Shown here in pieces: positions 1,551 to 33,968 of a DNA stretch of 64,000 nucleotides (its first letter is position 1; each line of letters opens with the position of its first letter). A program made the position numbers and the translations under genes. The stretch covers positions 17,484 through 81,483 of the forward strand of contig JAPPIG010000101.1 in NCBI GenBank assembly GCA_028820635.1, given 5' to 3'. Source of the stretch: Candidatus Poribacteria bacterium (lineage in GTDB: Bacteria > Poribacteria > WGA-4E > WGA-3G). Below the pieces are notes generated by a model. That model was given only the letters and a program-made list of their open reading frames with translations. It searched no databases and was not told the DNA's origin.

Positions 1551-1634
1551 TTTCACAAGTTTTGAAACTATCAAAAGGTTACCAAAAATCAACATATTTT
1601 TCAAGCGTTTTACGCGAAGGGGAGATTGCACATA

Positions 1635-2831
1635 ATGAATATAAAAAGTTTTTACTTCACTTCAATTGTTCTATTAGTACTTCTAAGTATATCTCTATTA
1701 GGATGTGAAAAAGTTGATCAGATGATTCCAACCGACACCACATCTCCGATGGATACAACGCTAAAAATTGGTGTCATTCAACCATCACATAGCTACACCA
1801 CCTTTAGTCAAGGTGCTGAAACCGCTCGTGTCCAAATTAATAAAAATGGCGGAATACTCGGCATGGAGGTTGCGTTTATCACCCGAAATAACCAGCCTGT
1901 AGCAGATGAACCACCGACATCTGAAGCAAGCATCAGTGCAGCAAATGAACTGATTGATATGGAAGAGGTATTTGCCCTACTCGGTCCCGTTCGCTCAAGC
2001 ATGGCGCTCAAGGTCGGACCAATTGCACAGCAGGCGCAGCGACTCATGCTTCCCGGTTCAAGCGGCTCAGATGTGCCGGAATCGGGAGATCATATCTTCC
2101 TCATCACGGTGCCAAACCCATTTCAAGGAAAGGTCATGGCAAGTTTCGCGATTAATCCTGACGAACTTGGTGCCCAAACGGCGGTAACAATCTATGAAGA
2201 AGGTGATAACTATTCCATCAACCTCGTCCAAGCATTTGAGGCATCTTATAAGGAAATCGGTGGTCAAATCGTTCACAGCGGCTCCTACCCTTCAGGTGAG
2301 ACTACCTTTACAGCACTGCTCATGGAAATTCAGGAGCTGGACGTTACACCTGATGTTATCTTCTCTCCCGGTCATCAACCAGAAACTCCTCTTTTGATAG
2401 GGAAAGCACGGCAAGCTGGCATCAAAGCGACCTTCCTCGGTGGCAGCGCTTGGGATGACAGAGAACGGTTCCTTAGCATCTTAGACGATAGCACTATGTT
2501 AGACGGCAGTTATTATCCGACTAATTTTTCCGTAGCGACACAGGACGTAGATGTGCAGGAATTTGTGAATGGTTATACGGCACTGTTTGAAAGTGCTCCT
2601 GATGGCGTTGCAGCGTCTGGGTATGATGCGATGCGGCTTTTGGCACGCGCAATAGAGAAAGCGGGTTCACTTGATTATGCTGCTGTTCGCAATGCCTTTG
2701 CAGAAGTCAAAGATTACAAGGGGGCAACAACTATTTCGCATTACGATGCAAATCGTCATCCCGTCAAAAGCCTCGCAATTCAGGTAATTCGTGGTGGAAA
2801 AGTTGAACACTACAAAGTTGTGAAACCGTAA
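1635..2831 (+). CDS. ABC transporter substrate-binding lipoprotein, Leu/Ile/Val-binding (Peripla_BP_6) type
   Basis: Signal peptide with lipobox LLGC. KIGVIQP...GAETARVQINKNGGILGMEV is typical of LivJ-like binding proteins. I prefer ATG 1635 (GGGGAG ends 10 nt upstream) over the ORF-track TTG at 1626. No permease or ATPase genes are adjacent. Confidence 0.75.
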   Translation: MNIKSFYFTSIVLLVLLSISLLGCEKVDQMIPTDTTSPMDTTLKIGVIQPSHSYTTFSQGAETARVQINKNGGILGMEVAFITRNNQPVADEPPTSEASISAANELIDMEEVFALLGPVRSSMALKVGPIAQQAQRLMLPGSSGSDVPESGDHIFLITVPNPFQGKVMASFAINPDELGAQTAVTIYEEGDNYSINLVQAFEASYKEIGGQIVHSGSYPSGETTFTALLMEIQELDVTPDVIFSPGHQPETPLLIGKARQAGIKATFLGGSAWDDRERFLSILDDSTMLDGSYYPTNFSVATQDVDVQEFVNGYTALFESAPDGVAASGYDAMRLLARAIEKAGSLDYAAVRNAFAEVKDYKGATTISHYDANRHPVKSLAIQVIRGGKVEHYKVVKP

Positions 2832-2846
2832 AACGTGTAAAATAAA

Positions 2847-3623
2847 ATGGAACATGAAGCAACACGTCCAAAGGCTTTTTTGATTGATCTGGATGGAACA
2901 CTCTATTTTAAAGGCAAACCTTACCCCGGAGCAATTGAGACTGTTAATTATCTGCGGGAGAAAGACTTTCAACTCCGATTTTTGACAAACACAACTGCTA
3001 AAACCCCAAAGATGCTTTACGCACAAATGCAAGGATTAGGCTTTGGCATCCATGAAAATGAGATTTTTAATGCGACTTATGCGTGTCTCTTCTACTTACG
3101 TTCACAGATTGGAATAAGTTGCCATTTTATGGTTGACGATGCTATTAAAGCGTTTTTCAAAGAAATACCATCAGATGACGAAGCACCCGATTTTGTCGTT
3201 ATTGGAGACTACGGTCAAAAGTTTGACTTTCACACTTTGAATCACGCTTTCCGCCTGCTGATGGATGGGGCTGAACTTATAGCATTACAGAAGGGACTCT
3301 ACTGGTTTTCATCTGAAGGAATATTCTTGGATTGCGGTGCCTTTGTGACACTTCTGGAATCCGCCGCAGATAAAACCGCCAAGGTCATGGGCAAACCGAG
3401 TGAGACGTTCTTCAAGCTTGCTCTTGATGATCTTCAGCTTTCTCCAAGTGAAGTAATTGTAGTCGGTGATGATATTACGTCTGATATAGTTGGGGCACAG
3501 ACAATGGAGATGCGGAGTATCTTGGTTAAGACTGGAAAGTTTAAACCTAATCAATTGGAAAATCCTATAACGGAGCCAACATGGGTGCTTGAGAGTGTTT
3601 CTGAGTTAAGTCAACTTTTTTAA
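2847..3623 (+). CDS. HAD-IIA family hydrolase (LHPP/NagD-like phosphatase)
   Basis: Motif I is LIDLDGTLY; motif IV is VGDDITSDI near the C-terminus; 258 aa. Confidence 0.75.
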   Translation: MEHEATRPKAFLIDLDGTLYFKGKPYPGAIETVNYLREKDFQLRFLTNTTAKTPKMLYAQMQGLGFGIHENEIFNATYACLFYLRSQIGISCHFMVDDAIKAFFKEIPSDDEAPDFVVIGDYGQKFDFHTLNHAFRLLMDGAELIALQKGLYWFSSEGIFLDCGAFVTLLESAADKTAKVMGKPSETFFKLALDDLQLSPSEVIVVGDDITSDIVGAQTMEMRSILVKTGKFKPNQLENPITEPTWVLESVSELSQLF

Positions 3624-3656: not shown

Positions 3657-4691
3657 ATGACAAACCAAATTATTCAACTCGGAGTCGTCGGATGTGGATG
3701 GGCAGGCTGCCAAGCTATTAATGCCGCCAATGCCACCTCTCGACTAAACGTCATTGCTATCGCAGAACGTGACCCAACCCGCCGTGAACAAGCAGGAAAT
3801 GACTACGCAGTACCACATCGCTATGCTGACTATACAGAACTCCTTGACGACTCATCTGTTGATGCTGTTTATCTTGCTACTTCGCCAGATGGTAGACTTC
3901 AGCAAGTCTTAGATACGCTCAATGCAGGCAAACATGTCTTAGTCCAAAAACCGCATGCTATCCGCGCTCCTGAAATATTAGAGATGGAAACAGCAGCGCA
4001 GCAGTCTGGCAAAACACTCCAATTCTGCTATTTTATGCGTCACTTTCCAAACAACCGACAGATTCGGCGCGCTGTCCTAAACGGTGCAATTGGAGACCCA
4101 TTTCACGCCCGCGTTTTTGGAAAATACAACTTCATTCCAACCCTGGATACCAACAGTCGATGGTTACACGTCTATGGACAGAAAGGTGGCTCATTAGGAC
4201 AACACTATTCGCACGAACTCAATCTGACATGGTGGTGGATGGGGTGTCCAAAACCTGAATGGGCATTTGCATCAAAGCATGTGCTTTATCCACAATACGA
4301 TGGACCTGAAGGCGCTGCAGAAGACTATTTCACAGGTCTCCTGGGTTGCGAAGGTGGTAAGACCATCCAGATTGACTGTTCACGGATGAGTCATTCAGAT
4401 TCTGGCAGCGTTGTGGAACTTTACGGCACTACTGGTGCGATCACAAATGGGGGCATATCTCGATTCAAAGATGGCCAATTTGTCCGAGAATCGATTGATG
4501 AACCTATTGAAATTGATCATGGAGAACAGCCTGAAGAAGTGCCTGTATTCTACTACGAACTCAATCATTTCGCTATGGCTATTGCGGGAGAAGTGACACC
4601 AGATGTATCTTCAGAAGATGCCTATATCTTTATGCAGATATTGGATGCACTCTACGACAGCGCGAAAAGTGGTGAAATGGTTTATATTTGA
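3657..4691 (+). CDS. Gfo/Idh/MocA family oxidoreductase (divergent relative of the tandem array)
   Basis: Rossmann start LGVVGCGWAG; EKP-equivalent motif LVQKPHA; 344 aa. Confidence 0.75.
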   Translation: MTNQIIQLGVVGCGWAGCQAINAANATSRLNVIAIAERDPTRREQAGNDYAVPHRYADYTELLDDSSVDAVYLATSPDGRLQQVLDTLNAGKHVLVQKPHAIRAPEILEMETAAQQSGKTLQFCYFMRHFPNNRQIRRAVLNGAIGDPFHARVFGKYNFIPTLDTNSRWLHVYGQKGGSLGQHYSHELNLTWWWMGCPKPEWAFASKHVLYPQYDGPEGAAEDYFTGLLGCEGGKTIQIDCSRMSHSDSGSVVELYGTTGAITNGGISRFKDGQFVRESIDEPIEIDHGEQPEEVPVFYYELNHFAMAIAGEVTPDVSSEDAYIFMQILDALYDSAKSGEMVYI

Positions 4692-4757: not shown

Positions 4758-5795
4758 ATGTACAAAAGTGCGATGTTAGGGTGCGGTGGACGCGCCGGGG
4801 GGCATGCAAGTGCCTATCGCTTTGTTAAAGGTGGTAAACTCGCAGCAATCTGCGATATGAACGAAGAACGACTAAACAACTTCGGTGATAATTTTGACAT
4901 ATCTTCCCGTTATACAGATTTGGATGAGATGCTCGAAAAAGAGAAACCGGATCTGCTACATATTGTGACCGCACCCGTGCTGCGCGGTTCGAATGAACGA
5001 ATACGGTATTCACTAATGAAGCAAGCCTCAGACCACGGTGTGCCTGCAGCGATTGTGGAAAAACCGATTGCTGTTGAAAGCGAAGATTGGAAACAGATTG
5101 CCGAATTAGCAGATGAAACAAAAACGAAGTTTGTTGTCAATACACAACTTAACTTCCATCCAAAAAACCTTGAATTAAAGCGAGATGTCGCGGACGGTAA
5201 GATAGGTGATCTTAAGTTCATTGACGCGAGTGCGCGCAGTACACCAGTAGATCAAGGTCCACACGTGCTTCAATTGGTATCATCCTACATTGATAATTCC
5301 AGACCTGTGAGTGTACTTGGGCAAATATCTGGAAGAGAACATCTGGATTCAGCGCAGCCTTCACCGATGCATGCTGCAGCACAAGTTATATATGAAAATG
5401 GACTTCACGTCTCTCTTGCATTTGGGCAAGGCATGGGCACGATGGCATCTGATGATCAAGGTATTTATTGCCACAAGCGCGTCTTTGTCATCGGAACAGA
5501 AGGATTCGTTCATTGGCGGTTTAGTAATTGGGAGCGCGCCACGCAAAAAGGAGGTTATGAAGGCGGTCCACTCAACTATGGTGAACAAGATGTTGAAGCA
5601 CAAGGAAATCTCACGGAGGCTGTCTTTGATTGGCTTGACGACGAAAAAAATGAGCATCCGACACATCTCAAACAATCCCTTGCAGAGTTCAATCTGCTTT
5701 TAGGAATGTACTACAGTGGTATTACAAATCAGATTATTGATCTACCGTTTGAACCACCCGACGGTTTGATGGATTCACTGAGAGAGAAGTTATAA
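4758..5795 (+). CDS. Gfo/Idh/MocA-type oxidoreductase, tandem paralogue 1 of 6
   Basis: Rossmann motif LGCGGRAGGHA. EKP motif IVEKPIA (K102). D165-x3-H169 (VDQGPHV). AAGGAGA Shine-Dalgarno upstream of the ATG. Confidence 0.85.
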   Translation: MYKSAMLGCGGRAGGHASAYRFVKGGKLAAICDMNEERLNNFGDNFDISSRYTDLDEMLEKEKPDLLHIVTAPVLRGSNERIRYSLMKQASDHGVPAAIVEKPIAVESEDWKQIAELADETKTKFVVNTQLNFHPKNLELKRDVADGKIGDLKFIDASARSTPVDQGPHVLQLVSSYIDNSRPVSVLGQISGREHLDSAQPSPMHAAAQVIYENGLHVSLAFGQGMGTMASDDQGIYCHKRVFVIGTEGFVHWRFSNWERATQKGGYEGGPLNYGEQDVEAQGNLTEAVFDWLDDEKNEHPTHLKQSLAEFNLLLGMYYSGITNQIIDLPFEPPDGLMDSLREKL

Positions 5796-5827
5796 ATTTA
5801 CTTTAGATTTTCCTTCTATAAAGATTG

Positions 5828-5859
5828 GCGGTAGCAGCGAATTTATTTGCAACTACCGC
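5828..5859 (+). terminator. Hairpin after paralogue 1 (weak intrinsic-terminator candidate)
   Basis: GCGGTAG...CTACCGC gives a 7-bp stem plus 2 further pairs, with loop GAATTTATTT, followed by AT-rich TAATTATTATA. Confidence 0.25.
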
Positions 5860-5927
5860 TAATTATTATATACCGTATGTGGAACATTTATGTGCGCGCA
5901 GTACAGAATGTATAAGGAGAAACATCT

Positions 5928-6965
5928 GTGTATAAAAGTGCGATATTAGGGTGTGGTGGTCGTGCCCGCGGGCATGCAGGTGCGTATCGTTTTGTTAAAG
6001 GTGGTAAACTCGCAGCGATCTGCGATATGAACGAAGAACGACTCAACGACTTCGGAGATCGTTTTGATATATCTTCCCGTTACACCGATTTGGATGAGAT
6101 GCTTGAGAAGGAGAAACCCGATCTTCTCCATATTGTCACAGCGCCATTATTACGCGGGACTAATGAACGCATTCGGTATTCGTTAATGAAGCAAGCATCA
6201 GACCACGGCGTGCCAGCAGTAATTGTAGAGAAACCGATTGCTGTTGAAAGCGAAGACTGGAAGCAGATTGCCGGACTCGCAGAAGAAACAGAAACAAAGT
6301 TTGTTGTCAACACACAACTGAACTTCCATCCCAAAAATATTGAACTAAAACGAGATGTCGCAGAAGGTAAAATTGGCGAACTAAGGTTCATTGACGCAAG
6401 CGCACGCAATACAATAGTAAACCAGGGACCACACGTGCTTCAATTGGTATCATCCTACATTGACAACTCTCGACCCGTGAGTGTGCTCGGGCAAATCTCT
6501 GGAGGTGAACGTTTGGATTCAGCAGAACCTTCACCGATGCATGCAGCAGCGCACGTTTTATATGAAAATGGACTTCACGTGTCCCTTGCTTTTGGCACGG
6601 GAATGGGCGCGAAGGTATCAGAAAGACCCGCGAATTTCAGACATAAACGTGTTTTTGTTGTTGGCACAAAAGGTTTTGTGCATTGGCGGTTCAGCAGTTG
6701 GGAACGCGCAACGCCTGAAGGTGGTTATGAGGGTGGTCATCTCAGCTATAACGATCAGGATGTTCAAGCACAAGGAAATCTCACAGAGGCTGTCTTCGAT
6801 TGGCTTGACGACGAGAAAAACGTACATCCGACACACCTCAAACAATCACTTGCTGAGTTCAACCTCCTTTTAGGTATCTACTACAGCGGTATAACAAATA
6901 ACATTATTGATCTTCCATTTGACCCACCTGATGGGTTGATGGATTTGCTTAGAGAGCAGTTGTAA
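5928..6965 (+). CDS. Gfo/Idh/MocA-type oxidoreductase, tandem paralogue 2 of 6
   Basis: GTG start 7 nt after AAGGAGA. I count 50 differences from paralogue 1 over 345 residues. The Asp of the DxxxH motif is replaced (VNQGPHV). Confidence 0.85.
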   Translation: MYKSAILGCGGRARGHAGAYRFVKGGKLAAICDMNEERLNDFGDRFDISSRYTDLDEMLEKEKPDLLHIVTAPLLRGTNERIRYSLMKQASDHGVPAVIVEKPIAVESEDWKQIAGLAEETETKFVVNTQLNFHPKNIELKRDVAEGKIGELRFIDASARNTIVNQGPHVLQLVSSYIDNSRPVSVLGQISGGERLDSAEPSPMHAAAHVLYENGLHVSLAFGTGMGAKVSERPANFRHKRVFVVGTKGFVHWRFSSWERATPEGGYEGGHLSYNDQDVQAQGNLTEAVFDWLDDEKNVHPTHLKQSLAEFNLLLGIYYSGITNNIIDLPFDPPDGLMDLLREQL

Positions 6966-6985
6966 TGGTCTGTTCATATTCAAAT

Positions 6986-7108
6986 TGTAGGTCGGGTAGA
7001 GCAAAGCGAAACCCGACAAATGCCATAAGCGCTTTTGGCGTTGATTTGGGCACGTATGATCAGATACGGGTATCCATGTCGGGTTTCGTAAACTCTACCC
7101 GACCTACA
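6986..7108. repeat. REPIN-like composite palindrome in the paralogue 2/3 spacer
   Basis: Left arm TGTAGGTCGGGTAGAGCAAAGCGAAACCCGACA (6986-7018) and inverted right arm TGTCGGGTTTCGTAAACTCTACCCGACCTACA (7077-7108). The centre carries an inverted copy of the AATCAACGCCAAA.GCGCTTTTGGC motif. Confidence 0.7.
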
Positions 7109-7174
7109 AGTGATTTATATAGAAAGTCAATAAGACAATATGTCATTTGATATGATATTATATCCTAACACTCT

Positions 7175-7204
7175 GGCAGGCGCGGTTTCAAACCACGCCT
7201 ACAA
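7175..7204 (-). repeat. GTAGG-headed REP-like hairpin
   Basis: The reverse complement reads TGTAGGCGTGGTTTGAAACCGCGCC, which is a GTAGG head followed by a GC-rich stem. Confidence 0.55.
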
Positions 7205-7245
7205 GAAAGAGTTAACATTTTGAATTTTACTAAGGAGAAATTTCC

Positions 7246-8283
7246 ATGTATAAAAGTGCATTTTTAGGTTGTGGTGGTCGTGCCCGCGCCCATGCAAGCG
7301 CATATCGTTTCGTTAAAGGCGGCAAAATCGGCGCAATCTGTGATATGAACGAAGAACTTCTCAATAAATTCGGTGACGACTTTGATGTTTCTTCCCGCTA
7401 CACAGATTTAGATGAGATGCTTGAGAAAGAGAAGCCTGATCTTCTCCACATCGTCACGGCTCCAGTTTTGCGTGGGACCAATCAACGTATCCGCTATCCA
7501 TTGATGAAGCAGGCATCAGACCACGGTGTGCCAGCAGCGATTGTTGAGAAACCGATTGCCGTTGAAAGCGAGGACTGGAAACAGATTGCTGGATTGGCAG
7601 AAGAGACAAAAACAAAGTTTATTGTCAACACACAACTAAACTTTCATCCCAAGAACCTTGAACTGAAACAAGATGTTGCAGACGGTAAGATAGGTGAGAT
7701 TAAGTTTATTGACGCAAGTGCGCGCAGCACGCCTGTAGACCAAGCGCCCCACGTATTGCAGTTGGTATCGTCATATATCGATAACTCGCGTCCGGTACGC
7801 GTGTTAGGTCAAATTGCAGGTAGAGAACAATTAGATTCTGCGCAGCCTTCTCCGATGCATGCTGCTGGACAGGCAATATATGAAAATGGTCTGCACGTTT
7901 CTCTTGCGTTTGGAACAGGCATGGGAACGTTGGCATCAGAGGGTGGAGGCACAGTAACACATAAACGTGTTTTTGTTGTCGGCACAAAAGGTTTTGTGCA
8001 TTGGCGGTTCAGTAGTTGGGAGCGTTCCACACATGAAGGTGGTTACGAGGGTGGTCCGCTCAGCTATGGTGAACAGGATATTCAAGCACAAGGCAACCTC
8101 ACTGAAGCAGCTTTCGATTGGCTTGATGATGAGAAAAACGAACATCCGACACATCTCAAACAATCTCTTGCGGAATTTAATCTGCTGTTAGGTATTTACT
8201 ATAGCGGTATAACGAATCAGATTATAGATCTCCCGTTTGACCCACCCGATGGGTTAATGGCTTCTCTCAAGGAACATCTATAA
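7246..8283 (+). CDS. Gfo/Idh/MocA-type oxidoreductase, tandem paralogue 3 of 6
   Basis: Same motifs as paralogue 1 (LGCGGRA, IVEKPIA, VDQAPHV). AAGGAGA Shine-Dalgarno. Confidence 0.85.
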   Translation: MYKSAFLGCGGRARAHASAYRFVKGGKIGAICDMNEELLNKFGDDFDVSSRYTDLDEMLEKEKPDLLHIVTAPVLRGTNQRIRYPLMKQASDHGVPAAIVEKPIAVESEDWKQIAGLAEETKTKFIVNTQLNFHPKNLELKQDVADGKIGEIKFIDASARSTPVDQAPHVLQLVSSYIDNSRPVRVLGQIAGREQLDSAQPSPMHAAGQAIYENGLHVSLAFGTGMGTLASEGGGTVTHKRVFVVGTKGFVHWRFSSWERSTHEGGYEGGPLSYGEQDIQAQGNLTEAAFDWLDDEKNEHPTHLKQSLAEFNLLLGIYYSGITNQIIDLPFDPPDGLMASLKEHL

Positions 8284-8293
8284 ACTAAAAATG

Positions 8294-8324
8294 GCGTGGG
8301 GCAGACATGTTGTATGCCCCACGC
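8294..8324. repeat. Perfect 10-bp GC-rich hairpin after paralogue 3
   Basis: GCGTGGGGCA / TGCCCCACGC with an 11-nt loop. There is no U-tract on the + strand, so it is not a classic terminator for paralogue 3. Confidence 0.5.
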
Positions 8325-8362
8325 ATAAAACCACATCAGAGCCATTCCATTGTACTGAAGCA

Positions 8363-8394
8363 TTCTTGTTGGAGGGCTTTGTAAGCCCGATTTT
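8363..8394 (+). repeat. REP-like unit (GT[TG]GG head), copy 1
   Basis: TTCTTGTTGGAGGGCTTTGTAAGCCCGATTTT matches the inverted copy at 16702-16733 at 31 of 32 positions. Confidence 0.7.
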
Positions 8395-8451
8395 CAACAC
8401 ATTATACTAACATTTTTCTTTGCTTGATATAAGTATATTAGGAGACATTCT

Positions 8452-9489
8452 ATGTATAAAACAGCGATGTTAGGATGCGGTGGTCGTGCCCGTGCACATG
8501 CAGATGCCTATCGCTTTGTAAAAGGTGGTAAACTCGCAGCAATTTGCGATATGAATGAGGAATTGCTTACCAACTTTGGCAATGATTTTGGTATCTCTTC
8601 CCGCTACACAGATTTAGATGAGATGCTTGAAAAAGAAAAACCCGATGTGCTTCACATTGTAACAGCGCCTGTTTTACGCGGCACAAGTGAACGCATTCGA
8701 TATCCGTTGATGAAGCAAGCATCAGACCACGGTGTGCCTGCCGCAATCGTAGAGAAGCCTATTGCCGTTGAAAGCGAGGACTGGAAGCAGCTTGCAGGAT
8801 TAGCTGAAGAAACACAAACGAAGTTCGTTGTTAATACACAACTCAATTTTCACCCGAAAAACTTAGAATTAAAACAGGATGTTGCTGAGGGCAGAATTGG
8901 TGAAATCAAGTTTATTGATGCCAGCGCACGCAGCACGCCTGTAGACCAAGCACCCCACGTATTGCAACTTGTCTCTTCCTACATTGACAACTCGCGCCCG
9001 ATCCGAGTGCTCGGACAAGTTGCTGGAGCTCAGGATTTGGACTCCACTCAGCCCTCTCCAATGCATGCTGCCGCTCAGGTCATATATGAAAATGGACTTC
9101 ACGTCTCTCTCGCATTCGGAGCAAGTGTAGGGACGCGAGTGCCTATAGATTCGGGTAATCACACACACAAACGCGTCTTTGTCGTAGGAACGAAAGGTTT
9201 CGTGCATTGGCGGTTTAGCAGCTGGGAACGCGCAACACCAGAAGGTGGTTACGAAAGTGGACCACTCGACTATGGAGAGCAGGATGTCGTCGCACAAGGC
9301 AATCTGACCAATGCTGTTTTCAATTGGCTTGACGATGAGAACAATGTGCATCCGACGCATCTCAAACAATCTCTTGCGGAATTTAATCTCCTCCTCGGCA
9401 TTTACTACAGTGGCGTAACAAGTCAGATTATCGACCTTCCGTTTGAACCGCCCGATGGCTTGATTGATATTTTGCGAGAAAAATTATAA
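8452..9489 (+). CDS. Gfo/Idh/MocA-type oxidoreductase, tandem paralogue 4 of 6
   Basis: Same motifs as paralogue 1. TAGGAGA Shine-Dalgarno. Confidence 0.85.
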   Translation: MYKTAMLGCGGRARAHADAYRFVKGGKLAAICDMNEELLTNFGNDFGISSRYTDLDEMLEKEKPDVLHIVTAPVLRGTSERIRYPLMKQASDHGVPAAIVEKPIAVESEDWKQLAGLAEETQTKFVVNTQLNFHPKNLELKQDVAEGRIGEIKFIDASARSTPVDQAPHVLQLVSSYIDNSRPIRVLGQVAGAQDLDSTQPSPMHAAAQVIYENGLHVSLAFGASVGTRVPIDSGNHTHKRVFVVGTKGFVHWRFSSWERATPEGGYESGPLDYGEQDVVAQGNLTNAVFNWLDDENNVHPTHLKQSLAEFNLLLGIYYSGVTSQIIDLPFEPPDGLIDILREKL

Positions 9490-9574
9490 GACTTTATTTG
9501 TAACAGAACGGTTAGAAAACGCTCCTACCGTGTAGGGTCCAAACTGCATAAGCATGGGCTATAATGGAGACATC

Positions 9575-10615
9575 ATGTATAAAACTGCGATGTTGGGATG
9601 CGGTGGTCGCGCCCGTGGACACGCAGATGCTTATCGCTTTGTGAAAGGTGGTAAACTTGCAGCAATCTGTGATATGAACGTAGAGCGACTCAACAACTTC
9701 GGGGATGACTTCAATATCTCTTCCCGTTATACCGACTTGGACGAGATGCTTGAAAAAGAGAAGCCAGATGTCTTGCATATCGTCACATGTCCCGTGCTTC
9801 CGAGTAGTAACGAACGTATCCGCTATCCGTTGATGAAACAGGCATCCGATCATGGCGTGCCAGCGGCGATTGTGGAAAAACCAGTCGCTATTGAAGGCGA
9901 GGATTGGAAGCAGATTGCAAGGTTAGCAGAAGAGACGAAAACGAAATTTGTCGTCAATACACAGCTCGACTTCCACCCAAAAAATCTTGAATTGAGAAAA
10001 GATGTCGTGGAAGGAAGAATCGGTGAGATTAGGTTTGTTGATGCCAGTGCGCGCAGCATGCCTGCTGAGCAAGGAGCACACGTGCTACAATTGGTGTCCT
10101 CCTACATTGACAACTCACGTCCAGTACGAGTTCTTGGACAAATCTCTGGAAGCAAGAATTTACATTCTGCTTCGCATCCCTCTCCGCTGCATGCAGTCGG
10201 GCATGTTTTGTATGAGAACGGTGTCCACGTCTCTCTTGCATTTGGAACAGAGATGGCACAAATGGCATCCGATGACCCGGGTATTTATGGTCACAAACGT
10301 GTTTTAGTTGCTGGTACGAAGGGCTTCATTCATTGGCGTTTCAGTAGTTGGGAACGCTCAACACTGGAGAATGGCTATGAGAGTGGACCACTGAACTACG
10401 GAGAGCAAGATGTTGTTGCGCAGGCAAACTTCACTGAAGCCATTTTTGATTGGTTAGACGATGAGAACAATGTGCATCCGACGCATCTCAAGCAATCGCT
10501 TGTTGAGTTTAATATTATCTTAGGGATGTACTACAGTGGAATAACAAACGAGATTATTGAACTCCCGTTTGAACCACCCGATGGATTGATTGATGTTTTG
10601 CAAGAAAAACTATAA
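9575..10615 (+). CDS. Gfo/Idh/MocA-type oxidoreductase, tandem paralogue 5 of 6
   Basis: I prefer ATG 9575 (MYKTAMLGCGG, with GGAGA 4 nt upstream) over the ORF-track ATG at 9554. It is 346 aa because of a one-residue insertion (SASHPSP). DxxxH reads AEQGAHV, so Asp is replaced by Glu. Confidence 0.85.
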   Translation: MYKTAMLGCGGRARGHADAYRFVKGGKLAAICDMNVERLNNFGDDFNISSRYTDLDEMLEKEKPDVLHIVTCPVLPSSNERIRYPLMKQASDHGVPAAIVEKPVAIEGEDWKQIARLAEETKTKFVVNTQLDFHPKNLELRKDVVEGRIGEIRFVDASARSMPAEQGAHVLQLVSSYIDNSRPVRVLGQISGSKNLHSASHPSPLHAVGHVLYENGVHVSLAFGTEMAQMASDDPGIYGHKRVLVAGTKGFIHWRFSSWERSTLENGYESGPLNYGEQDVVAQANFTEAIFDWLDDENNVHPTHLKQSLVEFNIILGMYYSGITNEIIELPFEPPDGLIDVLQEKL

Positions 10616-10692
10616 AACGTTGACTTACATTGTGTTTGTTGTTAACACTATCTATTTTGGTTTAAACCAGCATACTATTAAGGAGATTCTTT

Positions 10693-11730
10693 ATGTATAA
10701 AACAGCGATGTTAGGTTGTGGTGGTCGTGCCCGTGCACATGCTGATGCATACCGCTTTGTGAAAGGCGGCAAACTCACAGCGATCTGCGATATGAACGAA
10801 GAACTCCTCAACAAATTCGGAGATGATTTCAGTATCTCTTCGCGTTACACGGATTTAGATGAGATGCTTGAAAAAGAAAAACCGGATGTGCTTCACATCG
10901 TCACGGCACCATTGTTTCGTGATTCAAATGAACGTATTCGGTATCCTTTGATGCAACAAGCATCAGACCACGGCGTACCAGCAGCGATTGTAGAGAAACC
11001 GATTGCCATTGAAAGTGAAGGCTGGAAACAAATTTCTGGGTTAGCAGAAGAGACAAAAACAAAGTTTGTTGTCAATACGCAGCTTAACTTTCATCCACAA
11101 AACCTTGAACTGAAGCAGGACGTAGCAGAAGGTAAAATCGGTGAAATCAAGTTTATTGATGCAACCGCTCTCAGCACACCTGTAGATCAAGGCCCACACG
11201 TGCTTCAGTTAGTTTCATCTTATATTGATAATTCGCGTCCAGTCCGCGTATTAGGGCAAATTTCTGGAGGTGCAAATTTAGATTCTGCGCAGCCATCTCC
11301 ACAATATGCTGCTGCAAGAGTTCAGTATGAGAATGGACTGCATGTCTCTTACGCATTTGGGACAGCCATCGCACCCTTTGGCTCCGATGATCCGAAGGCT
11401 TTCTTTACTAAACGCGTCTTTGTTGTTGGCACAGACGGATATGTGCATTGGCGGTTCAATAGTTGGGAACGTTCGACCAGAGAAGGCGGCTACGAAGGGG
11501 GTCCGCTCAACTACGGGCAGCAGGATGTTGTTGCCCAAGGTAATCTCACCAATGCTGTTTTTGATTGGCTTGATGACGAGAAGAAAGTGCATCCGACACA
11601 TCTCAAGCAATCCCTCGTGGAGTTCAATCTGCTTTTAGGAATATACTATAGCGGTATTACAAACGAGATAATTGAACTTCCATTTGATCCGCCAGATGGG
11701 TTAATGGATTCGCTTAGGGAGCGATTGTAA
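10693..11730 (+). CDS. Gfo/Idh/MocA-type oxidoreductase, tandem paralogue 6 of 6
   Basis: Same motifs as paralogue 1. AAGGAGA Shine-Dalgarno. Confidence 0.85.
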   Translation: MYKTAMLGCGGRARAHADAYRFVKGGKLTAICDMNEELLNKFGDDFSISSRYTDLDEMLEKEKPDVLHIVTAPLFRDSNERIRYPLMQQASDHGVPAAIVEKPIAIESEGWKQISGLAEETKTKFVVNTQLNFHPQNLELKQDVAEGKIGEIKFIDATALSTPVDQGPHVLQLVSSYIDNSRPVRVLGQISGGANLDSAQPSPQYAAARVQYENGLHVSYAFGTAIAPFGSDDPKAFFTKRVFVVGTDGYVHWRFNSWERSTREGGYEGGPLNYGQQDVVAQGNLTNAVFDWLDDEKKVHPTHLKQSLVEFNLLLGIYYSGITNEIIELPFDPPDGLMDSLRERL

Positions 11731-11806: not shown

Positions 11807-11930
11807 GTAGGCGAGGTTTCCTAACCTCGCCAGTTATGGTGTATAGTGGTCTATCTACTCTAAAATCATAGGTCGCGATTCGGAGATCGCTCCTACCGAG
11901 AACATTGTAGGAGGAACTCCGATTCCCGAC
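11807..11930. repeat. Cluster of GTAGG-headed REP units after the array
   Basis: GTAGGCGAGGTTTCCTAACCTCGCC at 11807-11831. GTCGCGATTCGGAGATCGCTCCTAC at 11872-11896 (inverted half). TGTAGGAGGAACTCCGATTCCCGAC at 11906-11930. Confidence 0.7.
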
Positions 11931-11955
11931 TATTGATGAGACATATAAGTTTAGG

Positions 11956-12138
11956 ATGGACTATCCACTACCCTTTACTATCGGAAGTAGAAACGGACAA
12001 AACTTCTTTGCTGGTGTTGTTGACGAAGTGGCATTTTGGAACGAGGCAATTTCTGTTGAGGAATCCATGAACCCATCACCTGTACAACCAAAAGGTAAAC
12101 TCACAACCACTTGGGGTAAGATAAAAGATCGCCACTAA
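11956..12138 (+). pseudogene. C-terminal remnant of a LamG/concanavalin-like domain protein
   Basis: This 60-aa ORF carries FAGVVDEVAFWNEAIS, the typical last-strand motif of LamG-domain proteins. The N-terminal ~150 aa of such a domain is missing, and stop codons and REP units lie immediately upstream. Confidence 0.4.
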
Positions 12139-12142
12139 AAAG

Positions 12143-12994
12143 ATGGAAACCAATTCTGAAAAATTCGCTGAAGATGGCTACCTTGTCGTGAAAGCGGCAC
12201 TACACTCAGATGATTTGGCTCCGTTAATTGCGGTTATTTCTGAAGTTGTTGACAAACGCGCACAAGAATTTCGCAACGCTGGAACAATCTCAGATATTTA
12301 CGGAGACATGCCATTTGAACGGCGCTGGTATACCATCCTTCAGGAATGCGGTAGAGAAAATGAGGTGTTTGGCTGGCATACACTCGTTTTTAGTGAAGCA
12401 CTCTTCAACTTAATCACACATCCAAAAGTGTTAGATGTTGTAGAAACAATTATCGGTTGTGAGATTCAGTTCAACGGTGATTTTTGGGTGCGCCCGAAAT
12501 TGCCCAACGAAAAACTCACGACATTGCCTTGGCACCAAGACAGTGCCTACATGCCTCATACAGAAAAGGATACACACCTAACAGTATGGCTGCCGTTAGT
12601 AGATGTTGAAGTAGAAAACGGTGCGCTGCAATTTTTGCCCGGTAGCCATACATCTGGTTTACAAACCTACCATCGTGTTGAAGGCGAGGCGTTCGCTGTT
12701 CCAGTGCTATCTCCGACATCATCCCACAACAATATTGACACATTAGAAATGAAAAAAGGGGACCTGCTGATTTTTAACAATCTGGTATTTCACCGTTCTT
12801 TGCTAAACTGTAGCGATATTATTCGTTGGTCTGTTGATTTTCGGTTTAGTCGGAGTGACACATCGTTAGATGGACTCTGGCACGAAGCGATTGCGTGTCC
12901 CGTTCGCAATGGAAACAACGAGCAGTGTCTAACATCATGGGATGCTTGGCAAACACAATGGGAAGCAAGTCCACATAAAGGCAAATTTGTTTAA
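12143..12994 (+). CDS. Phytanoyl-CoA dioxygenase (PhyH) family Fe(II)/2-oxoglutarate oxygenase
   Basis: The start FAEDGYLVVKAAL, the HxD motif in WHQDSAY, and a distal His in VFHRS. Confidence 0.7.
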   Translation: METNSEKFAEDGYLVVKAALHSDDLAPLIAVISEVVDKRAQEFRNAGTISDIYGDMPFERRWYTILQECGRENEVFGWHTLVFSEALFNLITHPKVLDVVETIIGCEIQFNGDFWVRPKLPNEKLTTLPWHQDSAYMPHTEKDTHLTVWLPLVDVEVENGALQFLPGSHTSGLQTYHRVEGEAFAVPVLSPTSSHNNIDTLEMKKGDLLIFNNLVFHRSLLNCSDIIRWSVDFRFSRSDTSLDGLWHEAIACPVRNGNNEQCLTSWDAWQTQWEASPHKGKFV

Positions 12995-14945: not shown

Positions 14946-15060
14946 AATCAACATCAAATGCGGGTTTGGAATTTGGCACTTCGGACATTCTTTCTGTAGG
15001 AGGGAACTCCGATTCCCGACTACGATTGGCTTTGGTCGCGATTCGGAGATCGCTCCTACA
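14946..15060. repeat. Composite repeat: AATCAAC...hairpin motif plus a REPIN doublet
   Basis: The doublet at 14994-15060 is CTGTAGGAGGGAACTCCGATTCCCGAC-N14-GTCGCGATTCGGAGATCGCTCCTACA. It is near-identical to 16353-16419 and related to 30108-30171, 33838-33900 and 11872-11930. Confidence 0.85.
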
Positions 15061-15126: not shown

Positions 15127-15894
15127 TCAAACATATTTTTTCATTGTTTTTAATGCAGTTTCAATATCTGCATCAAAGTTTTCAAATTTGCACTCACACG
15201 AGATGCGTCCGTCGTATCCTGCTTTTTGTAGTGCGGTAAAGAAATCTGAAAAATCAAAGTCATCATTTCCAGGATAGGAGCGTTTGACAGGTTCAGCGAT
15301 ATGAACATGTGCTAACCATTCTGCAGCGTCAACAATGTTTTGCATCGGTTCGTTTTCTTGCCAGACGTGATATAGGTCAGCCAATGTTTTAATTCCTTTT
15401 CGGTTGACACGTTTTGCCATCGCTAATCCGTCTGCAACAGTGCGTAATATGTTTCCCTCTTTTAGACATATCGGTTCAATAACAATTGTGATGCCGTGTG
15501 CTTCCGCATGGTCAGCACCCATATCAAGAAATTCTGCGATCTGTGCTAATGCTCGTTCTTCTGAATAACCTTCCTCAACGTTTCGTGAACCGCTGCTGCC
15601 GTAAACGATGACTTCTCCGCCAATCTCGTTGGCTCTACGACATGCAGTTTCCACATACCGAGACAAACGTTCAAAATCCACTGTGTCACCGACAACGCGC
15701 AGGTCTCTGGGGATAAATCCGGCATACGCTTCAGGTTTCAAGGGTGCTTCTACCACCCGTTCTCGAATCTTCTGAAATTCGGTTTCATCTGCTTCTGGCA
15801 TAAGTGCATTTCGTACACCTAATTCAATATAGTCGTATCCGACTTCCGCAAGCCGATTAACATTTTCTAAACCAGTACATATTCCAAATCGCAT
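15127..15894 (-). CDS. Sugar phosphate isomerase/epimerase (xylose isomerase-like TIM barrel)
   Basis: 255 aa. The MRFGICT start, YDYIEL and the overall pattern fit the AP_endonuc_2 family. Confidence 0.7.
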   Translation of the reverse strand: MRFGICTGLENVNRLAEVGYDYIELGVRNALMPEADETEFQKIRERVVEAPLKPEAYAGFIPRDLRVVGDTVDFERLSRYVETACRRANEIGGEVIVYGSSGSRNVEEGYSEERALAQIAEFLDMGADHAEAHGITIVIEPICLKEGNILRTVADGLAMAKRVNRKGIKTLADLYHVWQENEPMQNIVDAAEWLAHVHIAEPVKRSYPGNDDFDFSDFFTALQKAGYDGRISCECKFENFDADIETALKTMKKYV

Positions 15895-16352: not shown

Positions 16353-16419
16353 CTGTAGGAGGGAACTTCGATTCCCGACTACGATTGGCTTTGGTCGCGA
16401 TTCGGAGATCGCTCCTACA
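16353..16419. repeat. REPIN doublet (same family as 14994-15060)
   Basis: CTGTAGGAGGGAACTTCGATTCCCGACTACGATTGGCTTTGGTCGCGATTCGGAGATCGCTCCTACA. Confidence 0.85.
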
Positions 16420-16470: not shown

Positions 16471-16789
16471 TGGTGCTGTGCTAAGTATCACCATAAGTGT
16501 CAATTTAGCGAGTAACATTTGTGCATTTGATACACCTTTCGCCCCTCTGGGGCTTGATGAATACGGACATTATGCTGCTATACACCTTTCGCCTCTCCGA
16601 GGCTTTGGCAAATAGCATCATAGCACCAGCGGTGCGGAATGTTTATAGAATACACGTGCCATAAGAAACCAAGCACCAGCGGTGCGAAAGGTGTATAACA
16701 CAAAATCGGGCTTACAAAGCCCTCCCACAAGAAGAAATCCGCAATTTTTTCTTAAATTGACACCTATGGTACTGTGCTAAGTATCACCA
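16471..16789. repeat. Nested repeat block bounded by a 23-nt direct repeat
   Basis: Direct repeat TGGT[G/A]CTGTGCTAAGTATCACCA at 16471-16493 and 16767-16789. Inverted repeat GTGTCAATTTA (16497-16507) / TAAATTGACAC (16753-16763). Four hairpin-plus-GAAAGGTGTAT units at 16530-16553, 16580-16603, 16623-16647 and 16673-16697. A REP unit at 16702-16733. Confidence 0.75.
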
Positions 16790-18512: not shown

Positions 18513-18635
18513 GACGCGCTTACAAAGCGCGCCTACTTTGTTTCAGGCGTTATGGGTATCACAACTAAACATGTCGGGTTTCGCAAGCTCTACCCGACCT
18601 ACAAGACTATATCGGGGTTGAAAACCCCTCCTACA
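18513..18635 (-). repeat. Three consecutive GTAGG-headed REP units of different sequence families
   Basis: The reverse complements read GTAGGCGCGCTTTGTAAGCGCGTC (18513-18536), TGTAGGTCGGGTAGAGCTTGCGAAACCCGACA (18572-18603) and TGTAGGAGGGGTTTTCAACCCCGA (18612-18635). Confidence 0.75.
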
Positions 18636-18754: not shown

Positions 18755-20707
18755 ATGGAAATTCAAAAAGCCCCACTCTCGACGTCCTCGCAAATTCCTG
18801 CCCACGGGGTTACGCTCAAATCCATCCTAATTGCTGTTATTCTAATTCCAATAAATTGCTACTGGGTTATCGAAATGGAGGTTATCCGCTATTCTGGTCA
18901 CCCAGTCACGATTTCACTTTTTTTTAATGTTATTTTCAGTCTGTTTGTAGTTATCGGTGTTAACCAACTGCTGCAGCGTTTTCTGCCACGAATTGCGTTG
19001 GTCCAAAGCGAGTTGGTTGTTGTTTACCTGATGCTTTCCATTGCCTCAGGAATTACTGGGCACGATATGCTTGAAATTTTGGTGCCGATGCTTGGGCATG
19101 CTTTTCGCTTTGCAACGCCTGAAAATGAATGGCAACAACTGTTTTTACCTTTCCTTCCAGAATGGCTCACCGTCAGTAATAATAACTTGTTGCAAGGTTA
19201 TTATGAAGGTGACCTACCACTCTATACATTTGAAACCTTACTCGGTTGGGCAACACCTGTGTTGTGGTGGACAGTGTTTATTAGTGTGCTGATTTTCGGC
19301 ATGCTTTGCATTAATATTATTATCCGAAAACAGTGGATTGAGTATGAAAAACTAAGTTACCCGATTATCCACCTTCCTCTCCAACTTACAGAAACCCCTC
19401 ATAACCGTCTTTTCCAGAATAAGCTAATGTGGCTCGGTTTTTGTGTTGCTGGTGGCTTGGCATTATGGAACGGTATAAGTTTTCTATACCCCTTTTTCCC
19501 GGAGTTGCGTACCCGTATTCAGAGTTATCAGGTTTTTACAGAAAGCCCTTGGAACGCGATGGGCAGAATTCCTTTTTCGCTCTACCCATTTGCGATTGGA
19601 CTTGGTTTTTTTATTCCACTTGACCTCTCATTTTCTTGTTGGTTTTTCTTTTGGTATTGGCGGTTAATGCGTGTTGCGGGGGCAGCATTCGGATTTCGTA
19701 ACCTACCTCGTTTTCCCTATACCAACGAGCAAGCATCTGGCGGGTATCTTGCGTTGTGCGTTTTAGCTATATGGGCAAGTCGCAGACACCTACTTCGGGT
19801 AGGACGAGCACTCTTTAGTCAAAAGAAATCACAAGAAGATGAAAATGAAGCAATTTCTTATAGAGCCGCCGTTCTTGGACTCATTGCTGTAATGGTTTTC
19901 TTAGTGATTTTTTGCTACTATGGCGGTGCCAACATAGGCATCATGCTCGCGTTTTTCGCTATCTATTATATGATTTCTATTGCAATCACGCGTATGCGTG
20001 CTGAGTTGGGAACGCCCGTGCATGATTTGCACTATTCTGGTCCCGACCAAATTTTAACGCGGGTGGTCGGTACACGCAGGTTGGGCAGAGATAATCTCAT
20101 CATGTTTTCAATGTTTTGGTTCATCAATCGTGCATATCGAAGCCACCCGATGCCACATCAGTTAGAAGGGTTTAAAATTATAGAACGAACTAACATGACA
20201 ATGAAACGGATTATCTTTGCCTTTATGTTAGCCGCTGTGTTAGGGTCGTTAGCAGGTTTTTGGGCTTTAATTGACCGTGGCTATCAATTAGGAATGGAAG
20301 TTCGGGCATATTGGCCATCCTTGAGTGCATTTGGTATAGAACCCTACCGCCGTCTAACGGGCTGGCTTCAATCTCCTACTGATACGCTTATCCCAGAAAG
20401 TCTGTTTACAGGTATTGGTTTTCTACTGACAACTGTGCTAATGCTGTTTCGAATGCGTTTTGTGTGGTGGCCGTTTCATCCTGCTGGTTTTGCTATTTCT
20501 ACCAGTTGGGGCATGCATGTTACATGGGGTTGTCTTTTTATGAGTTGGGTAATTAAAGTGATTATTCTCAAATATGGTGGACCAGTGAGGTATAGAAAAG
20601 TAGCACCTTTCTTTTTAGGACTTATCCTTGGGGAGTTTACGGTAGGAAGTGTCTGGACAATTATAGGAATTGTTGGCGGTATTCCAACCTACGGATTCTG
20701 GGTTTAG
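18755..20707 (+). CDS. Large polytopic membrane protein of unknown function
   Basis: 650 aa with at least 12 hydrophobic segments and many Trp/Phe/Tyr-rich helices. I recognise no family motif. Confidence 0.6.
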   Translation: MEIQKAPLSTSSQIPAHGVTLKSILIAVILIPINCYWVIEMEVIRYSGHPVTISLFFNVIFSLFVVIGVNQLLQRFLPRIALVQSELVVVYLMLSIASGITGHDMLEILVPMLGHAFRFATPENEWQQLFLPFLPEWLTVSNNNLLQGYYEGDLPLYTFETLLGWATPVLWWTVFISVLIFGMLCINIIIRKQWIEYEKLSYPIIHLPLQLTETPHNRLFQNKLMWLGFCVAGGLALWNGISFLYPFFPELRTRIQSYQVFTESPWNAMGRIPFSLYPFAIGLGFFIPLDLSFSCWFFFWYWRLMRVAGAAFGFRNLPRFPYTNEQASGGYLALCVLAIWASRRHLLRVGRALFSQKKSQEDENEAISYRAAVLGLIAVMVFLVIFCYYGGANIGIMLAFFAIYYMISIAITRMRAELGTPVHDLHYSGPDQILTRVVGTRRLGRDNLIMFSMFWFINRAYRSHPMPHQLEGFKIIERTNMTMKRIIFAFMLAAVLGSLAGFWALIDRGYQLGMEVRAYWPSLSAFGIEPYRRLTGWLQSPTDTLIPESLFTGIGFLLTTVLMLFRMRFVWWPFHPAGFAISTSWGMHVTWGCLFMSWVIKVIILKYGGPVRYRKVAPFFLGLILGEFTVGSVWTIIGIVGGIPTYGFWV

Positions 20708-30047: not shown

Positions 30048-30171
30048 GAATCAACGCTGAATGCGCTTTTGGCATTCAGCCAAATCAACGCCAAATGCGC
30101 TTTTGGCGGGAGGGAACTCCGCTTCCCGACTGCTCCTAACTTTCTGTCGCGATTCGGAGATCGCTCCTACA
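30048..30171. repeat. Two tandem AATCAACG...hairpin motifs plus a REPIN doublet
   Basis: GAATCAACGCTGAATGCGCTTTTGGCATTCAGC and AAATCAACGCCAAATGCGCTTTTGGC are followed by GGGAGGGAACTCCGCTTCCCGAC...GTCGCGATTCGGAGATCGCTCCTACA. Confidence 0.8.
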
Positions 30172-33780: not shown

Positions 33781-33901
33781 CGAGGCACAGTAACCTCGCC
33801 TTACAATATAGTAATTATGTAAATAAGTTCACATATTCTGTAGGAGCGATCTCCGAATCGCGACCTTTTGTGAATGTCGGGAATCGGAGTTCCCTCCTAC
33901 A
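33781..33901. repeat. REP unit plus an inverted REPIN doublet
   Basis: CGAGGCACAGTAACCTCGCCTTAC at 33781-33804. CTGTAGGAGCGATCTCCGAATCGCGAC-N12-TCGGGAATCGGAGTTCCCTCCTACA at 33838-33901. Confidence 0.8.
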
Positions 33902-33968
33902 ACTTAGATGTAAAGTTAATTGTAAAATCTACTATAAATTAAGAAGTCAACAGAATGTTTATGTGTCT

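Follow-up and report, generated by a model that had tools for sequence, protein, structure and literature searches.

A tandem array of six Gfo/Idh/MocA-type oxidoreductase genes in sponge-associated Poribacteria, probably ancient paralogues with specialised copies

Why should a bacterium keep six genes of nearly identical length for one type of oxidoreductase, head to tail on one strand? The question is raised by a stretch of 64,000 nucleotides (nt) from Candidatus Poribacteria bacterium (assembly GCA_028820635.1, contig JAPPIG010000101.1), referred to here as the window, in which the six genes, named c1 to c6, occupy positions 4758 to 11730 of the plus strand (Table 1). Poribacteria are abundant, uncultivated sponge symbionts, and what they use as carbon sources has, to our knowledge, been deduced from genomes only. 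Genes of the Gfo/Idh/MocA superfamily are commonly multi-copy in carbohydrate-degrading bacteria. The analysis described below makes it likely that the six are ancient tandem paralogues of one subfamily of Gfo/Idh/MocA oxidoreductases, and that the copies are specialised. Our literature search, which left most subscription journals outside its reach, found no publication that describes this array.

The list of open reading frames (ORFs) agrees with what an earlier note on this DNA had described, namely six consecutive genes for proteins of 345, 345, 345, 345, 346 and 345 residues with spacers, from c1 to c6, of 132, 280, 168, 85 and 77 nt. The shared N-terminus, (M/V)YK[ST]A.LGCGGRA, and the EKP motif, in the form IVEKP[IV]A, were seen in all six copies, with c2 initiating at GTG. 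Each gene has its own Shine-Dalgarno sequence 7–8 nt 5' of the start codon, and the AAGGAGA given for these sites is exact in c1, c2, c3 and c6, while c4 has TAGGAGA and c5 no more than TGGAGA. An alternative in-frame ATG at 9554 would lengthen c5 by seven residues; its orthologues start at MYKT, and the start was taken as the MYK at 9575, as in all of them. The 50 amino-acid differences that had been counted by hand between c1 and c2 came to exactly 50 on recounting. The family assignment also stood, as PF01408 was above threshold in every copy (57–67 bits against a cut-off of 24; E 5e-15 to 2e-18).

How old are the copies, and how have they been kept? They share 76–86% of their protein sequence and 73–82% of their DNA sequence. 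The synonymous divergence (dS) calculated according to Nei and Gojobori ranged from 0.94 (c1/c2) to beyond saturation, with a nonsynonymous divergence (dN) of 0.07–0.145 and a dN/dS ratio of 0.03–0.09. Because the dS between paralogues was saturated, we also set each window copy against the orthologues found for it elsewhere (pairs with 0.1 < dS < 1.5), and for these pairs the median dN/dS was 0.024 for c1, 0.073 for c2, 0.022 for c3, 0.038 for c4, 0.107 for c5 and 0.058 for c6. All six reading frames are intact. A GENECONV-style permutation test over 480 variable sites gave no tract with a global p < 0.27, and concerted evolution was rejected, there being no significant gene-conversion tract among the six copies. 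Each copy is held as a separate orthologue by strong purifying selection. The earlier note, which had proposed both of these calculations, took the copies to be old and individually maintained; the saturated dS, the low dN/dS among copies and among orthologues, and the presence of orthologues across genomes all uphold this.

The distribution of the family places the duplications in time. A scan that took one genome per species yielded 78 loci in 73 Poribacteria genomes, which are metagenome-assembled genomes (MAGs) save one single-cell assembly (WGA-3G), many of them single records of 5–6.7 Mb labelled as chromosomes. The closest database proteins belong to Candidatus Poribacteria and are up to 97% identical. 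Tandem arrays of 2–6 family ORFs, counted stop to stop, occur in nearly all of the related loci (295 ORFs in total), and the six-gene order is identical in L003 (JAPPCZ01; 92–94% DNA identity over the whole region) and in L006 (CBDCOJ01, a 315-kb contig; 88–94%). A phylogeny had been proposed for these genes. When 291 full-length copies were placed in a neighbour-joining tree, the six window copies fell into six separate groups, none with more than one member from any genome. These groups extend over 36 genomes for c1, 23 for c2, 48 for c4, 41 for c5 and 51 for c6, while that of c3 holds 78 sequences from 71 of the 73 genomes, and a seventh group, "x", has 14 sequences and no member in the window; copy counts per genome, made within ±10 kb around each locus and from the best 80 of 223 matches, are lower bounds.

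Outside the array clade, a second scan was seeded with a four-sequence alignment of the closest relatives not belonging to the family, and every locus that it yielded had a single copy. The nearest of these single-copy relatives belong to other Poribacteria lineages (62–67% identity), the next to Planctomycetota, Anaerolineae and unclassified MAGs (~50–57%), and those farther away to Latescibacterota, Gemmatimonadota, Spirochaetia and Chloroflexia (~33–42%). When the tree was rooted with the single-copy relatives, the array copies were monophyletic (bootstrap 100/100), with bootstraps of 99 for c1, 100 for c5, 100 for c6 and 77 for c4. Since the array clade is monophyletic and its relatives are single-copy, the duplications predate the radiation of the clade. 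The array is the outcome of serial tandem duplication after the split from other Poribacteria and before the radiation of one sponge-associated clade, in whose ancestor a single ancestral gene was duplicated step by step.

The later history is one of loss, reordering and splitting of copies, which left arrays of 2–6. Common orders elsewhere are c5-x-c4-c3-c6, c5-c4-c3-c6 and c5-c3-c4-c6, and on the chromosome OZ244889 the c1-c2 and c3-c6 parts lie 2 Mb apart, the break falling inside spacer 2. The variation in copy content between genomes and the split array in OZ244889 support the independence of the copies. As to the split itself, the two loci on OZ244889.1 are L002 (4.2 Mb) and L049 (2.2 Mb); the c3-c6 part is now located beside genes for a Type ISP restriction-modification enzyme and for a nuclease of DpnII/MboI type, and a xylose-isomerase-fold gene follows c2, which it does only at this rearranged junction. 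The PYJA, CBDHCS and JAPPES genomes exhibit a similar split, with c2 missing.

Are the copies different in kind as well as in age? Taking all orthogroups together, 155 of the 345 positions show an invariance of 98% or more. The positions that each orthogroup conserves but that differ from one orthogroup to another cluster at residue 165, which lies four before the catalytic His169, in the segment 192–208 and in the loop 223–240. Position 165 is Asp in c1, c3, c4, c6 and x, Asn in c2 and Glu in c5, with at least 96% conservation in each group. The near outgroups keep D165, and the Asn of c2 and the Glu of c5 are therefore derived; Asn also occurs at this position in the outgroup L086 and in the enzyme WlbA. 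In the loop 223–240 the between-paralogue difference of the consensus is 0.58, compared to 0.16 for the whole protein, so that it ranks within the first three of 328 windows, and conservation within orthogroups is 0.86. Such a pattern would be expected of a specificity determinant and not of relaxed constraint. A further position, D204, is kept in 16 of 16 outgroup sequences and is Met, Thr or Gln in every array copy, and the change therefore preceded the expansion. Taken at sequence level, the fixed differences between paralogues plausibly fit a functional specialisation, or one of substrate range.

We propose that each enzyme would oxidise a secondary alcohol of a sugar, a cyclitol or a glycoside to the ketone, or catalyze the reverse reaction, by means of the EKP lysine and of His169 in the DxxxH motif. 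The paralogues would then differ in substrate or in stereo-specificity through residue 165, the segment 192–208 and the loop 223–240, and the array probably lets the symbiont process related polyols or glycosides derived from the host or from seawater.

The predicted fold accords with this chemistry. An AlphaFold2 model of c1 was computed from a 58-sequence alignment that reached down to 23% identity, with a mean pLDDT of 96.8 and a pTM of 0.93. It consists of a Rossmann domain (residues 1–128) and an alpha/beta domain, and as modeled the fold is the canonical one of Gfo/Idh/MocA. The C-terminal alpha/beta domain is present, with a sheet and helices in the model and full-length Foldseek matches. 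Foldseek searches with the model returned Gfo/Idh/MocA structures exclusively (probability 1.0, TM scores of 0.71–0.80, 13–20% identity): 5uhw, sulfoquinovosidases (SqgA) dependent on nicotinamide adenine dinucleotide (NAD), TM_0425, DgpA, scyllo-inositol dehydrogenase, glucuronide 3-dehydrogenase and WlbA; no solved structure among them was above 20% identity. Residues G8, E101, K102, Q130, H169 and G249 are invariant in the 58-sequence alignment. The GxGxxA-type motif is LGCGGRA, whose G8, G10 and R12 are conserved in the same alignment; IVEKP[IV]A recurs in all seven orthogroups; and H169 aligned in the profile search with the D-x3-H histidine of 5uhw, DgpA and WlbA. There is no signal peptide, the protein opening directly with strand 1, and Asp33 (in ICD) at the end of strand 2 suggests, by analogy, a preference for NAD. 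The array proteins are probably cytoplasmic and NAD-preferring. The family is narrow, with 67 clusters (50% identity) at E < 1e-30 among 1.8 billion representatives, and among the relatives that came up in one search or the other, the closest full-length ones beyond the tight family were 43–67% identical.

Which characterized enzymes do the array proteins resemble? With the superfamily at large (PF01408 plus PF02894/PF22725) they share the Rossmann GxGxxA, the EKP lysine, the DxxxH histidine at the start of the first helix of the C-terminal domain, and the two-domain architecture, whereas their C-terminal domain diverges too far to reach the Pfam thresholds. The best structural match is the Agrobacterium radiobacter oxidoreductase 5uhw, in complex with NAD+ and Mg (Foldseek E 4e-26, TM 0.76), which is also the best profile match (E 6e-40) and has in common with the array the GCG...A N-terminus and D-x3-H. 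In contrast, identity to it is 20%, 5uhw has QKP in place of EKP, and it is a single gene; no relevant publication on its function was found in our literature search. The DgpA-type glycoside 3-oxidoreductases (9m3d, 7xr9, 9m37) gave the best sequence match in the PDB (E 4.5e-11; profile E 2e-37). DgpA has both EKP and D-x3-H, as the array proteins do, and works in the cytoplasm with NAD, yet the significant sequence match is mainly N-terminal, the C-terminal part is weak in the profile, and the whole-chain TM in Foldseek is 0.70. The window has no DgpB/C-like partner of xylose-isomerase fold beside the array, the nearest such gene being at 15127–15894 on the other strand. A DgpA-type identity was set aside in view of the N-terminal match and of the lack of an adjoining gene for a triosephosphate isomerase (TIM) barrel in the window.

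The inositol dehydrogenases of Bacillus subtilis offer a parallel of another kind. IolG, IolX and IolW are Gfo/Idh/MocA paralogues with different stereo-specificities, and there too several paralogues in one genome each serve a different isomer of one substrate class, although they do not form a six-gene tandem array. Use of myo-inositol has been proposed for Poribacteria (PMC6306507). In Pfam scans of the window, iolE, iolD, iolB and iolC did not flank the array, and the rest of the window was housekeeping.

Fused forms occur among distant relatives of the family. Proteins P0135, P0141 and P0151 (765–788 residues), P0211, P0214, P0240 and P0255 (607–633 residues), P0260 and P0261 carry an N-terminal class III aminotransferase or, at the C-terminus, a TIM barrel like that of xylose isomerase, a glycosyltransferase of family GT2 or an O-methyltransferase. 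These fusions suggest keto-sugar chemistry in general; a transfer of function from them to the array was rejected, identity being at most 37%.

Several points weigh against reading the six genes as ancient, specialised paralogues of this family. The c2 and c3 clades are not cleanly separated in the tree, where one stray sequence lies in the wrong group, and the copy counts are the lower bounds explained above. The C-terminal model PF22725 scored 17–21 bits, below its cut-off of 27. Among curated families in NCBIfam, iolG (TIGR04380) reached 48 bits against a cut-off of 355, in the N-terminal half only, and UDP-GlcNAc 3-dehydrogenase reached 50 bits against 450; these two, levoglucosan dehydrogenase and BT_2159, all far below threshold, were rejected as identities, that of an IolG equivalog also for want of an iol cluster around the array. 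The neighbouring genes form no recognisable sugar pathway, and their synteny, which is absent around the single-copy outgroups, may merely reflect the relatedness of the genomes. Finally, the variable segments are presumed to lie along the substrate pocket on the basis of general knowledge of the fold.

Could the six products instead be subunits of one or more hetero-oligomeric enzymes, with the variable loop as a subunit interface and not as a substrate determinant? Enzymes of this superfamily usually form dimers or tetramers, the six genes follow one another in one orientation with little DNA between them, and in the model the most divergent segment is a loop at the surface that connects two strands of the C-terminal sheet, all of which favors such an arrangement. 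We consider it unlikely nonetheless, given that c3 is present in 71 of the 73 genomes as opposed to about 23 for c2 and 36 for c1, that gene orders differ, and that the catalytic motifs are complete in every copy. A complex that is obligate and fixed in its make-up would be incompatible with such variation in content and with the separation by 2 Mb seen in OZ244889.

A second alternative concerns the reaction. The proteins might be redox-neutral enzymes of the same fold that use NAD as a cofactor, such as oxidoreductive glycosidases of SqgA, GH109 or GH4 type or 3-keto-intermediate lyases or epimerases, and not net dehydrogenases. Sulfoquinovosidases (8qc2, 8qc6 and 8zn9) are indeed among the top Foldseek matches, with TM scores of 0.75–0.78, and the GH109 protein 6t2b was matched by sequence. 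Identity to those enzymes is 13–15%, however, which is no better than that to true dehydrogenases, and the best sequence matches are the dehydrogenases DgpA1 and 5uhw; the redox-neutral assignment thus seems improbable.

That some copies are decaying, or are non-catalytic pseudo-enzymes kept by linkage only, is very unlikely. The Asp of DxxxH is replaced in c2 and c5, the copies with the highest dN/dS among orthologues (0.07 and 0.11), but six intact frames, ratios nowhere above 0.11 and the fixation of Asn and Glu in at least 96% of the respective clades all speak against decay, and Asn at this position is found in the active enzyme WlbA as well as in L086. A recent dosage amplification, or an assembly artefact of collapsed or expanded repeats, both of which the earlier note had discounted, can be practically dismissed, for its sole support is the head-to-tail layout of equal-length genes, whereas copies with 73–82% DNA identity and saturated dS are too divergent for a recent origin (a DNA difference of 18–27% makes collapse or expansion by an assembler impossible), two other assemblies, L003 and L006, have the six genes in the same order, and copy-specific orthologues recur in dozens of genomes.

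Table 1. Coordinates of the array genes, neighbouring genes and palindromic elements in the window.
Feature	Position	Strand	Description	Evidence or context
c1	4758..5795	+	345 aa Gfo/Idh/MocA oxidoreductase, D165 in DxxxH	ORF, motifs, PF01408 E 7e-17
c2	5928..6965	+	345 aa, starts with GTG, N165 in DxxxH	
c3	7246..8283	+	345 aa	Orthogroup retained most widely
c4	8452..9489	+	345 aa	
c5	9575..10615	+	346 aa, most divergent, E165, one-residue insertion near residue 200	
c6	10693..11730	+	345 aa	
Peripla_BP_6 gene	1626..2831	+	Predicted lipoprotein, solute-binding, Leu/Ile/Val-binding type	Pfam E 3e-40; first gene of the plus-strand run
HAD gene	2847..3623	+	Haloacid dehalogenase (HAD)-superfamily hydrolase, Hydrolase_6 + Hydrolase_like	Pfam; 28 related loci
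GFO7	3657..4691	+	Canonical Gfo/Idh/MocA, other subfamily	PF01408, PF02894, PF22725 above threshold; 53 of 78 related loci
PhyH gene	12143..12994	+	PhyH-family Fe(II)/2-oxoglutarate dioxygenase	PF05721 E 6e-28; 35 related loci; 412 nt after array
Spacer-2 doublet	6985..7109	.	REPIN-like inverted doublet, 125 nt	Two inverted ~34-nt arms
Hairpin after c3	8294..8324	.	GC-rich hairpin just after c3 stop; 3-nt loop, arms of 14 nt that are 93% complementary	Single copy within the window
Palindromes after c6	11810..11940	.	Three REP-like palindromes, 25–27-nt units	Hairpin 11810-11831

Do the neighbouring genes indicate a substrate? The protein encoded by the Peripla_BP_6 gene, which occurs in 54 related loci, has branched-chain amino-acid binding proteins as its PDB relatives, while the PhyH protein is related to PHYHD1, SnoK/SnoN, EvdO2 and MysH. 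A luciferase-like oxidoreductase is encoded upstream on the opposite strand. GFO7, which had been described as a seventh, more divergent member preceding the array, is indeed a Gfo/Idh/MocA protein, but it belongs to a separate subfamily outside the duplication history of the array: it matches c1 at 23% identity in the N-terminal 146 residues only, and has QKP where the array proteins have EKP. The synteny of the neighbours recurs in 28–54 of the 78 array-clade loci and was not found around the single-copy outgroup loci. Around the outgroup L091 lie genes for a UxuA-like TIM barrel, a thiamine pyrophosphate enzyme and a short-chain dehydrogenase/reductase, and around L094 those for a zinc alcohol dehydrogenase and an epimerase, contexts that are suggestive of polyol or sugar metabolism, if inconsistently. 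The nearest outgroup, P0124, on a 2.4-kb contig, has a gene for a TetR-family regulator directly upstream. Genomic context was rejected as a guide to substrate, as the neighbours are heterogeneous and the outgroup contexts inconsistent.

Some further observations relate to these surroundings. In L084, from another Poribacteria lineage, two tandem PhyH genes (5959–7715, plus strand) lie upstream of the single family gene (7992–9032); they echo the PhyH gene of the window and fall below the BLAST filter (E <= 1e-20, at least 60% query coverage) against it. Immediately before the PhyH gene of the window, a 75-codon frame (11911–12138, plus strand), ending 4 nt short of the PhyH start codon, matches Laminin_G_3 in its final 32 positions only (E 5e-5, below threshold). 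It resembles what is left of the 3' end of a LamG-domain gene, with REP-like palindromes now in place of the part upstream. Farther along, a plus-strand gene at 18755–20707 encodes a conserved protein of 650 residues that matches DUF6785 and DUF6784 over its full length (E 1e-166), adjoining a P-type cation ATPase gene (20704–23427, minus strand), and two adjacent plus-strand ORFs of 2096 and 1038 residues (52268–58558 and 58559–61675) occupy a region of lower GC content (0.37). Rfam and tRNA scans of the whole window, searching for non-coding RNA, were empty.

The single-copy relatives L094–L129 and others, at 33–42% identity, come from MAGs of Latescibacterota, Gemmatimonadota, Spirochaetia and Chloroflexota. 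In many cases the isolate names agree with those of the Poribacteria MAGs (jk18x, p16x, SB06xx, Plut, IRC), which suggests that both came from the same sponge or coral metagenomes and is a hint of enrichment of the wider family in host-associated lineages, or of its exchange among them.

What role might the repeats between the genes have had? Repetitive extragenic palindromic (REP) elements, or their inverted doublets (REPINs), had been reported in the spacers and considered as possible mediators of unequal crossing-over. They are present in spacers 2 and 3 and after the array, but spacers 1, 4 and 5 have small unique hairpins only. The arms of the doublet in spacer 2 consist of a GTCGGGT/ACCCGAC hairpin behind a TGTAGG head, with a 17-nt perfect inverted repeat and a nested 12-nt one, and a third copy of the arm is found at 18570–18605. 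Spacer 3 has 32 nt in common with 16702–16733, as well as GTAGG-headed palindromes. The units after c6 have copies near 15034, 16393, 30146 and 33840, with 4–5 identical copies of each in the window. A GTAG head is typical of REPs. In common with known REP and REPIN elements, those described here are intergenic, short and palindromic, carry a GTAG(G) head and recur in several identical copies across the window; one is an inverted doublet. We take them for genome-wide REP-like elements. Against the idea of array-linked REPs, they are not array-specific and at least one postdates the array.

Across the window, two families of 25–27-nt palindromes bounded by GTAGG/CCTAC were discerned, TAGGTCGCGATTCGGAGATCGCTCCTAC and TGTAGGAGGGAACTYCGATTCCCGAC, often paired and with copies 96–100% identical. 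Exact copies of the first (TAGGTCGCGATTCGGAGATCGCTCCTAC) are at 11871–11896, 15034–15059, 16393–16418, 30146–30170 and 33840–33866; the second (TGTAGGAGGGAACTYCGATTCCCGAC) is at 11913–11932, 15003–15022, 16353–16378 and 33876–33902. No RAYT (REP-associated tyrosine transposase) turned up in the partial Pfam annotation of the 64-kb window, in which no search was aimed at it.

The doublet of spacer 2 is absent from L003, in which an alignment gap covers 6966–7068. Since L003 is otherwise 92–94% identical, the doublet is a recent insertion and not the cause of the duplications, and with REP families dispersed over the whole window the idea of REP-mediated duplication was not sustained. The REP-bearing spacers may, on the other hand, be sites of rearrangement, the break in OZ244889 being in spacer 2.

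What does the array mean for Poribacteria? It is a clade-specific expansion of a very common enzyme superfamily, an ordinary family expansion that indicates no new mechanism. The expansion is six- to seven-fold and was kept through the whole sponge-associated clade, the gene being single-copy in the other Poribacteria and in the phyla sampled, which makes the array a concrete candidate for host-related metabolic adaptation. It also provides a series of enzymes of 76–86% identity that is convenient for enzymology, in which a short loop and one residue of a catalytic motif may set specificity. A bolder proposal, which we hold as tentative and rather doubtful, is that of a symbiosis-specific innovation, in which the ancestor lost Asp204 and then multiplied into six or seven specialised enzymes for a structurally related series of sponge-derived compounds; examples might be isomeric cyclitols or glycosides belonging to the host matrix or to host metabolites. 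If this were true, the array would mark, and help to explain, a nutritional link between host and symbiont.

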